A stretch of DNA of 64,000 nt from Escherichia coli (GTDB taxonomy: Bacteria > Pseudomonadota > Gammaproteobacteria > Enterobacterales > Enterobacteriaceae). Each line of letters starts with the position of its first letter. Position 1 is the stretch's first letter. The DNA is taken from the NCBI RefSeq assembly GCF_003790525.1, contig NZ_CP033635.1, one strand, 5' to 3'. The notes beneath the pieces were generated by a model. That model did not search any database. It had not been told where the DNA came from and was given only the letters and a program-made list of their open reading frames with translations. This document shows positions 52,117 to 52,776 of the stretch, in pieces. The translations under genes were made by a program, and so were the position numbers.

Positions 52117-52159
52117 GTAGACACAGAATAATTACTCGCCTATCCTCACTGTAGACACA
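52117..52159. promoter_or_regulatory. Two 10-bp direct repeats (TGTAGACACA) upstream of the antitoxin gene, candidate operator
   Basis: Copies at 52117..52126 and 52150..52159, 25 to 70 bp upstream of the antitoxin start. Confidence 0.45.
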
Positions 52160-52183
52160 CAATAGATACAGGAGTTAACCCAC

Positions 52184-52432
52184 ATGCGCACACAGGTTGT
52201 ATTGCAAAAATGGGGTAATAGCATTGCCCTTCGACTAACGGGAAACCTTAAAACCGTTCCGGGGTTTTCAGTGGGTGATATCGTCAACGTTGAAATTAGT
52301 GAAAAGGGGCTTTTTGTAGAAAAGCCTGCACGCCGTCGCCTGAGTGAAGCCGAATTACTCGCCGGGATAACGCCAGTTACAGCGCACGCGGACGAAATTG
52401 CCACCCCATTCAATGAGGAGGTTGATTACTGA
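52184..52432 (+). CDS. AbrB/MazE-type (PemI/ChpS-like) antitoxin, 82 aa
   Basis: N-terminal VVLQKWGNSIALRL SpoVT/AbrB swapped-hairpin signature; stop overlaps the toxin start (TGATG). Confidence 0.8.
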   Translation: MRTQVVLQKWGNSIALRLTGNLKTVPGFSVGDIVNVEISEKGLFVEKPARRRLSEAELLAGITPVTAHADEIATPFNEEVDY

Positions 52433-52776
52433 TGTTTGTACCTAAGCGTGGTGATATTTGCTGGCTGGATTTTGAGCCGCAGAAAGGAAAAGAGAGCGGA
52501 AAGTATCGCCCGGCACTCATACTATCCCATGAGCAATATAACCGACTCACCGGGCTTGTCATATGCTGCCCCATAAGTACGAGCATACGAAATGCTCCCA
52601 CAGAAGTTCCGGTAACAAATCTGGACGCCCCCAGCGTGGTAGCAACCACACTCATTCAAACCCTTGACTGGCGTCAGCGGAAAGCGCGCTTAATCACAGA
52701 GGCAGAAGATGGGGTATTTAATGATGTGCTTGAAAGAGTCATTACCCTGATTGGTGGAGAGCATCTGCTTAAGTAA
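52432..52776 (+). CDS. MazF/PemK-family endoribonuclease toxin, 114 aa
   Basis: KRGDICWLDFEPQKG...RPALILS...LVICCPISTS matches the PemK/MazF fold signature; coupled to the upstream antitoxin. Confidence 0.8.
   Translation: MFVPKRGDICWLDFEPQKGKESGKYRPALILSHEQYNRLTGLVICCPISTSIRNAPTEVPVTNLDAPSVVATTLIQTLDWRQRKARLITEAEDGVFNDVLERVITLIGGEHLLK

Follow-up and report, generated by a model that had tools for sequence, protein, structure and literature searches.

A Predicted MazEF-Family Toxin-Antitoxin Operon Carried as Accessory Cargo by a P4-Like Satellite of Escherichia coli

Introduction

A 64,000-nucleotide stretch of Escherichia coli DNA (contig NZ_CP033635.1, hereafter the window), identical in sequence to the chromosome of E. 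coli GF60 (NZ_CP172185.1), very probably carries a functional type II toxin-antitoxin (TA) operon of the MazEF family. As judged from sequence comparison, the operon represents a distinct subfamily and is accessory cargo of a P4-like satellite integrated at the tRNA-Arg gene argW, with maintenance of the satellite as its likeliest role. It consists of a gene for an 82-aa MazE-like antitoxin (52184..52432, + strand) followed by a gene for a 114-aa toxin of the PemK/MazF family (52432..52776, + strand). Two copies of a quasi-palindromic box lie over the predicted promoter, and the same box occurs upstream of related operons in other genera and inside the MazE-bound sites of E. coli K-12. An original prediction, made from the letters of the window, had described the two genes and a pair of upstream direct repeats and had suggested a stabilizing or phage-defense function. 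Here we describe the evidence for the identity of the two proteins, their candidate operator and their genetic context, and we weigh the roles that the operon may serve.

The Toxin and the Antitoxin

The two open reading frames are arranged as originally described, and they are translationally linked. The TGA stop codon of the antitoxin gene and the ATG start codon of the toxin gene share one base within TGATG. Both genes have a Shine-Dalgarno sequence of their own: AGGAG for the antitoxin (52170-52174, 9 nt upstream of its ATG) and GAGGAGG for the toxin (52415-52421, 10 nt upstream of its ATG). RefSeq labels the antitoxin (WP_001260304.1, which starts MRTQVVLQKWGNSIALRL) as 'hypothetical protein' and the toxin (WP_032353561.1) as 'type II toxin-antitoxin system PemK/MazF family toxin'.

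Residues 5-105 of the toxin match the Pfam family PF02452 (PemK_toxin) across model positions 1-107 of 109 with an E-value of 1.2e-24, and the protein matches PHROG 1936, 'MazF-like growth inhibitor', with an E-value of 6e-27. A sequence search of the PDB gives MazF proteins as the nearest solved structures (E=4e-20 to 6e-17 for the MazF entries, with E ~1e-20 for 7bye and 7d28), and the E. coli MazF structure is matched at E=3e-17 with an identity of ~40%. The match to Kid (PDB 1m1f) is far weaker (E=3.9e-7, 33 bits). Among the NCBIfam equivalogs, the toxin scores 92.9 bits against MazF (NF007386, cut-off 120) and 51.3 bits against ChpB (NF007320, cut-off 129). By these scores MazF is its nearest relative, followed by ChpB and then by Kid. 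The original prediction had left the pair to be placed by profile search within the MazEF, PemIK, or ChpB subfamilies; the search does point to MazF, but because the toxin falls under every equivalog cut-off it is best placed in a separate MazEF-like subfamily, an orthologue of neither MazF nor ChpBK. Membership in the PemIK/Kid or the ChpB subfamily was dropped on the 33 and 51.3 bits.

Catalysis in MazF proteins needs an Arg and a Thr, R29/T52 in E. coli MazF (EcMazF) and R25/T48 in BsMazF (PMC10893535). In a HMMER alignment, R26 of the toxin pairs with EcMazF R29 and S49 pairs with T52. A MAFFT alignment of ~30 family members, together with reference toxins, has Arg at the position of R26 and Ser (or Thr) at the position of S49 in nearly all of the family members. 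The change from Thr to Ser is conservative and is invariant within the toxin's own subfamily, so the alignment contains none of the inactivating catalytic substitutions that would have spoken against the predicted toxin. On these alignments the protein is a PemK/MazF-family endoribonuclease that retains both the Arg and the Ser/Thr of catalysis, and it is predicted to be active. In two distant relatives, from a Thiotrichales bacterium (L034:6998-7336) and a Methylomicrobium sp. (L038:6998-7339), the catalytic Arg is replaced by Cys or Trp, and those toxins may be inactive.

The antitoxin is recognized less readily from one sequence. As a single query it matches PDB entries of MazE at E=9e-5 to 4e-4, which is weak, and the NCBIfam MazE model at E=3.5e-4 (20.9 bits, cut-off 113). 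A profile built from 24 family members matches the MazE structure 7d2n (7d2n_E) at E=3.6e-8 and E. coli MazE (1mvf_D/1ub4_C) at E=1.9e-7 over residues 3-79. Residues W10, N12, and R17 of the antitoxin correspond to W9, N11, and R16 of E. coli MazE (EcMazE), which make the key contacts to DNA in the published MazE-DNA model, where K7/R8 are backbone anchors (PMC4333400). The family alignment shows no variation at W10 and N12 and almost none at R17. At the anchor positions, K9 pairs with EcMazE R8, and Q8 stands where EcMazE has K7. By profile and alignment, then, the antitoxin is homologous to MazE, keeps the residues that contact DNA, and has a C-terminal tail, and the original assignment of a MazE-like antitoxin to a PemK/MazF-like toxin is borne out for both partners.

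The Promoter and the Candidate Operator

Upstream of the antitoxin gene, the decamer TGTAGACACA occurs twice on the + strand. The distal copy (repeat 1, 52116..52125) lies 68 nt before the ATG and overlaps a -35-like hexamer, TAGACA (52118-52123). A -10-like hexamer, TATCCT (52141..52146, + strand; a consensus match only), follows TAGACA after 17 nt. The proximal copy (repeat 2, 52150..52159) begins 3 nt past the -10-like hexamer and 34 nt before the ATG, over the transcription start expected near 52152-52155. A possible third and degenerate box, AATAGATACA (52161..52170, + strand), can be assigned only weakly; it has two mismatches and lies 11 nt past repeat 2. The two strands of the window together contain exactly two copies of TGTAGACACA, against a shuffled expectation of 0.04, and none of 100 shuffles had at least two copies. 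The two 10-bp repeats of the original prediction are therefore real, although the first starts at 52116 and not at 52117.

Matches to TGTAGAYACA, with up to two mismatches allowed, were counted on both strands over the 130 nt that precede each of 16 orthologous antitoxin genes. They were found at 2.1 sites per 100 nt, compared to 0.077 in the rest of the loci, a 27-fold ratio that is not to be read as a probability because the loci are related by descent and include several from the same genera, so that their sites are non-independent events. The box is present in orthologues from Yersinia, Photorhabdus, and Rahnella, whose upstream regions are otherwise unlike between genera, and neighboring boxes in orthologous loci are frequently spaced 11 nt apart. 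In Yersinia and Rahnella the proximal box is the best conserved one, reading TGTAGATACA and lying 27-29 nt ahead of the ATG. The upstream region of the Photorhabdus orthologue contains the palindrome GTATCTACTTAGTAGATAC. TATACT takes the place of the -10-like site both in the orthologues and in K-12 mazEF.

The same box is found upstream of mazEF in E. coli K-12. There, the upstream sequence CGTATCTACAATGTAGATTGATATATACTGTATCTACATATG contains the box TGTATCTACA. Calorimetry has shown that the K-12 mazEF fragments 'c' (GTATCTACAATGTAGATTG) and 'b' (ATATACTGTATCTACATAT) bind one MazE dimer each (PMC4333400), and the K-12 box falls inside both of these bound sites. Hence the 'direct repeats' of the original prediction appear to be a MazE box that is present twice, quasi-palindromic in sequence and changed from T to C at one position. 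In relatives the copies often face in opposite directions, as would suit a dimer that reads a near-palindromic site. The proposal that the repeats are an operator gains by this comparison, and the boxes at 52116-52125 and 52150-52159 are a candidate autoregulatory operator with strong comparative support.

With its promoter and operator, its two genes and a stem-loop, the TA cassette covers ~0.7 kb (52100..52800, + strand) and appears to transfer between satellites as a unit. It is apparently an intact and ordinary MazE/MazF-type operon with MazE-type boxes over its promoter. The G+C-rich stem-loop GAGGGCTGAGAAGCCCTC (52780..52797; no strand assigned, scored on the - strand) stands between the convergent toxin and capsid-like genes and is probably their shared terminator. 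An Rfam search of 51500-53000 in E-value mode returned zero matches, hence no known small RNA or antisense element was found in that region.

The Satellite and Its Attachment Site

The original prediction had placed the TA pair between an autotransporter block and a satellite-like module. It is instead inside the satellite, ~150 nt from the attachment (att) core at 51948..51966 (- strand), at the satellite end distal to the integrase gene int. The att core, TGGTGTCCCTGCAGAAATC, is the displaced 3' end of argW and marks the boundary of the satellite beside the cassette. The complete argW lies outside the window and adjoins the integrase gene; its 3' end, TGGTGTCCCCTGCAGGAATC, recurs at 51948-51966 with two differences. 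No complete tRNA was called by ARAGORN within the window; of the tRNA, the att copy comprises just 19 nt from the 3' end. In 226 other E. coli genomes the match is limited to window positions 51900-51966 and is located at their argW, and CFT073 has the uninterrupted order UpaE-OmpH-argW-yfdC. The argW repeat, the 226 genomes and the gene order of CFT073 together imply that the element from 51967 rightwards was inserted at argW.

The genes of the satellite begin with those for the integrase, AlpA, an Icd-like protein and a P4 alpha-type primase (PHROG 1139, E=2e-297), and continue with a second integrase, an Ogr/Delta zinc finger protein, a 236-aa protein and a homologue of the P2-family major capsid protein. 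The capsid homologue (52820..54091, - strand; 423 aa) is convergent with the toxin gene and matches PHROG 70 at E=6e-78 as well as PF05125. From this gene content, the element is a P4-like satellite without psu that has the capsid homologue in the place of psu. A presumed 19-mer for the cos site of P2/P4 (GGCGAGGCGGGGAAAGCAC) had no match within three mismatches, a result that is uninformative if this 19-mer is not the exact cos sequence or if the helper phage differs.

Several other features of the satellite were noted. PF05125 and PHROG 70 cover only residues ~119-422 of the capsid homologue, which leaves an N-terminal extension of ~118 aa. Satellites of this sort in Salmonella, Klebsiella, Erwinia, and Pectobacterium encode homologues of it that are 41-52% identical, and identity to true P2-like phage capsids is just 35-38%. 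The capsid homologue was noted also in loci L004, L016, and L051-L057. The 236-aa protein encoded before the capsid homologue (window 52820-54801, - strand) has no family match and occupies the position that sid has in P4. The satellite has two tyrosine recombinases: a 420-aa integrase by argW (record positions 1788639-1789901) and a second recombinase of 334 aa (59255-60259, - strand), directly downstream of the primase gene and 99% conserved at other integration sites. An IS21-family element (istA/istB, ISSso4-like; ~55547-57854, - strand) lies between the Ogr/Delta gene and a 90-aa open reading frame in the GF60 copy and is missing from the otherwise collinear satellite of TUM1880 (L004). 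At 52020-52050, in the AT-rich sequence that separates the cassette from the att core, there are short direct repeats, GTACCCGTTTTGT/GTGCCCGTTTTAT, which may be arm-type binding sites of the integrase; satellites integrated at hpt do not share this AT-rich sequence. To the left of the satellite, 43019-51510 and the sequence upstream of it are the known block of ipuA-ipuB, LuxR, the UpaE autotransporter, and OmpH. This block abuts argW in CFT073, and in GF60 the satellite insertion parts ipuA-ipuB/UpaE/OmpH from argW.

Variation of the Cargo Slot

Of 5426 complete genomes of E. coli, 56 carry the cassette, and exactly these 56 carry the capsid-like gene; the sites of integration are argW and others, for instance hpt. 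In the hpt-integrated satellites (L004, L005), homology to the window begins at ~52100, just before the distal box. With a co-occurrence of 56/56, no variation of the cassette as cargo was visible at this depth. More divergent satellites, whose capsid homologues are 41-52% identical, hold differing content in the end slot. A Salmonella satellite has a canonical mazEF there, with a toxin 39% identical to that of the window; one E. coli satellite lineage has a hok-like type I toxin; and in a Klebsiella satellite the slot is empty. The same arrangement of TA pair and capsid-like gene is found in Pantoea stewartii, with a capsid homologue of 39% identity. The slot is thus variable over a longer time scale and has repeatedly received toxin systems. 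The Salmonella satellite L051 has, besides its end-slot mazEF, a hicA-hicB pair with a MazE-like open reading frame between the primase and Ogr/Delta genes (L051:2031-2987), which makes two toxin-antitoxin loci on one small element.

One satellite is informative about both exchange and decay. In the E. coli assembly GCA_020005525.1 (L052:6420-7045) the cassette is decayed: the antitoxin is 96% identical to that of the window and the stem-loop is the same, whereas the toxin is cut down to residues 1-24 and 106-114 by an internal deletion of ~25-105, and both boxes are mutated (TGTAAACACA and CGTTGACACA). The capsid-like gene of this satellite is only 49% identical to that of the window. An antitoxin so similar beside a capsid-like gene so different implies that the cassette was exchanged between satellite lineages, and loss of the toxin with retention of the antitoxin is the order of loss expected of an active toxin. 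From these comparisons the cassette is best regarded as accessory cargo in an att-proximal slot, a status that rests on the more distant satellites.

Relatives on Plasmids and Chromosomes

A scan of 100,044 species genomes gave 46 loci with relatives of the toxin. In 44 of these loci, all from other species, an antitoxin homologue is located immediately 5' of the toxin gene. The two genes have been inherited together across Gammaproteobacteria. Yersinia, Photorhabdus, Rahnella, and Pantoea have close relatives of the pair, with toxins 73-80% and antitoxins 56-61% identical to those of the window, equal protein lengths and an equal one-base overlap. More distant relatives are found in Morganella, Xenorhabdus, Legionella, and Methylobacter. 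Satellite genes were not found within 7 kb of the Yersinia, Photorhabdus, and Rahnella loci. PHROGs includes phage-borne homologues of both proteins.

A paralogous pair (WP_033810804.1/WP_032354044.1) is present in 15 E. coli plasmid records, with 93% identity in the toxin, 76% in the antitoxin and 75.8% at the DNA level. On an IncK2/Z conjugative plasmid it directly follows the relaxase gene, and its upstream boxes are ATGTAGACAG and GTGTATACA. Between the satellite and plasmid copies, the proportions of changed nonsynonymous (pN) and synonymous (pS) sites are 0.042 and 0.71 for the toxin and 0.143 and 0.79 for the antitoxin. Since pN is far below pS, strong purifying selection acts on both genes, and the toxin is the more constrained of the two. 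GF60 itself has the paralogue on its own plasmid (NZ_CP172186.1, 90006-90596; L060), and cross-neutralization between its satellite and plasmid pairs is possible. Among 70 carrier genomes GF60 alone has both copies; ~0.15 such genomes would be expected by chance, and a single one implies no association.

Discussion

The cassette belongs to a thoroughly known kind of system, as a distinct subfamily of it. In gene order, gene sizes, and one-base overlap it is like E. coli mazEF (b2783/b2782), in which position 2911091 of the K-12 record belongs to both genes. Its toxin shares with MazF the fold family, ~40% identity, and the catalytic Arg; its antitoxin aligns with MazE over the full length and keeps the W/N/R contacts to DNA; and its candidate operator shares the box (TGTATCTACA/TGTAGATACA) around a -10 element of the TATACT type. 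The two systems differ in the catalytic Thr, which is Ser here, and in the loop motifs, which are GKESGKYRP and IRNAPTEV in the satellite toxin and GSEQAGHRP and SKGYPFEV in MazF. The boxes of the satellite are direct and 34 nt apart, while the K-12 operator is an alternating palindrome with an ATATAT 'a' site that is absent here, and E. coli mazEF belongs to a relA-mazEFG operon instead of a satellite. PemI-PemK/Kis-Kid of plasmids R100/R1 and ChpS-ChpBK share with the cassette the PemK/MazF superfamily, an AbrB-type antitoxin, and an existence as addiction modules of mobile elements, but both are more distant than MazF and their GGNFAR insertion loop is missing from the satellite toxin. The pair of IncK2/Z and related conjugative plasmids has the subfamily, the lengths, the overlap, and related upstream boxes in common with the satellite pair, from which it differs by saturated synonymous sites, a relaxase-adjacent location, and another C-terminal tail of the antitoxin.

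Knowledge of the MazEF family suggests how the operon would work, and autorepression, lability of the antitoxin, and RNA cleavage by freed toxin are taken from there. Dimers of the MazE-like antitoxin, aided by bound toxin, would sit on the TGTAGAYACA boxes at the -35 region and the transcription start and repress the operon. Should the labile antitoxin no longer be resupplied, the toxin would cut single-stranded RNA at a short specific motif and growth would be arrested. Cells that lose the satellite would then be killed or arrested, and the cassette would in this way maintain the satellite selfishly. A possible side effect would be abortive-infection defense against phages. Addiction is the favored role because the same subfamily, which spreads in the form of a self-contained cassette, is found on conjugative plasmids too.

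A number of results weigh against this account of the operon. The antitoxin matches the Pfam family MazE_antitoxin (PF04014) only at E=9.4, under the threshold; this model has just 48 positions and is weak for the subfamily, of which only one of 24 antitoxins reaches it at E<=0.001. An AlphaFold2 (AF2) monomer model of the antitoxin had a pLDDT of 61.7 and a pTM of 0.30, with six strands in the N-terminal half, a confidence too low for the model to confirm the fold. The toxin, as described above, remains under the MazF equivalog cut-off. The promoter TAGACA-17 nt-TATCCT (52118..52146) is predicted from a 9/12 consensus match, and the loci that yielded the box count are phylogenetically related. 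The co-occurrence of the cassette with the capsid-like gene in 56 of 56 genomes, in a distant blastn mode too, makes it look fixed at the depth of complete E. coli genomes, which speaks against its status as cargo. Finally, neither the toxin nor the antitoxin was matched by the PADLOC defense models, a negative that concerns the proposed side role in defense.

Other explanations have been considered for the cassette as a whole. It may serve mainly in anti-phage abortive infection, such that a helper or an unrelated phage which stops host transcription or degrades the antitoxin frees the RNase, by which the infection is aborted; the satellite would carry it much as P4 carries gop-beta-cII. The position lends itself to this idea, since the att-proximal end of a P4-like satellite is equivalent to the antiviral hotspot of P4 (PMC9122126); related satellites differ in what fills the slot, in repeated cases a toxin system, and PHROGs has the phage-borne homologues. 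The idea is nevertheless unlikely in our judgment. Besides the PADLOC result, a search for literature linking MazF to P4-like satellites found none, the satellite is missing psu, which defines the published hotspot, and the plasmid copies by the relaxase gene and the lone copies of Yersinia, Photorhabdus, and Rahnella fit generic addiction and selfish spread at least equally. A more general form of the proposal holds that the att-proximal slot of the psu-less, capsid-bearing lineage is an unsurveyed hotspot that favors TA modules such as this pair, canonical mazEF, and hok-like toxins, in which abortive infection triggered by a helper or competitor phage would outweigh addiction; this must be called quite improbable. 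It is still less probable that the cassette is an anti-addiction module or cross-talk partner of the plasmid paralogue, in which the satellite antitoxin would neutralize the plasmid toxin, or the plasmid antitoxin that of the satellite, and so alter the stability of plasmid or satellite. GF60 does carry both pairs, with the high identities given above, but its being the one such genome among the carriers shows no real association, and the C-terminal, toxin-binding tails of the antitoxins are the most divergent part between the two copies.

The upstream decamers, for their part, could be the by-product of a tandem duplication of a 34-bp promoter segment and have no operator function, with any regulation located elsewhere. 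They do belong to a longer imperfect direct repeat of 29 nt (52107-52135/52141-52169), 79% identical and with a period of 34 nt, and a -10-like TATC(A/C)T element precedes each copy, which is the pattern of a local duplication. Against it, the box recurs, often inverted, before orthologues with unrelated intergenic sequence and lies within the experimentally bound MazE sites of K-12, and both boxes are mutated in the toxin-less copy L052. We regard this explanation as extremely improbable, and a satellite-maintaining MazEF-type operon with a MazE-type operator is the reading that we prefer.

Significance

By itself the cassette adds one further module to the MazEF family, and more interest attaches to the satellite in which it is found. 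In P4, the psu-int hotspot carries variable antiviral cargo, gop-beta-cII and others (Rousset et al., 2022; PMC9122126). The slot described here is like it in carrying a toxin-type accessory module that is distal to int, beside the attachment site, and variable between related satellites; it is unlike it in that psu is missing and a P2-family capsid homologue is found instead. Because the hotspot survey found its loci by means of psu, a lineage without psu would go unseen. The psu-less, capsid-bearing satellite family (56/5426 complete E. coli genomes) has a toxin-holding end slot that psu-anchored surveys would have overlooked. At the level of regulation, the operator box TGTAGAYACA, common to canonical mazEF, gets a clean comparative definition. 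Lastly, a subfamily that spans satellites, conjugative plasmids, and chromosomes is a handy case for the question of addiction versus defense and, with both copies present in GF60, for cross-talk between related modules.

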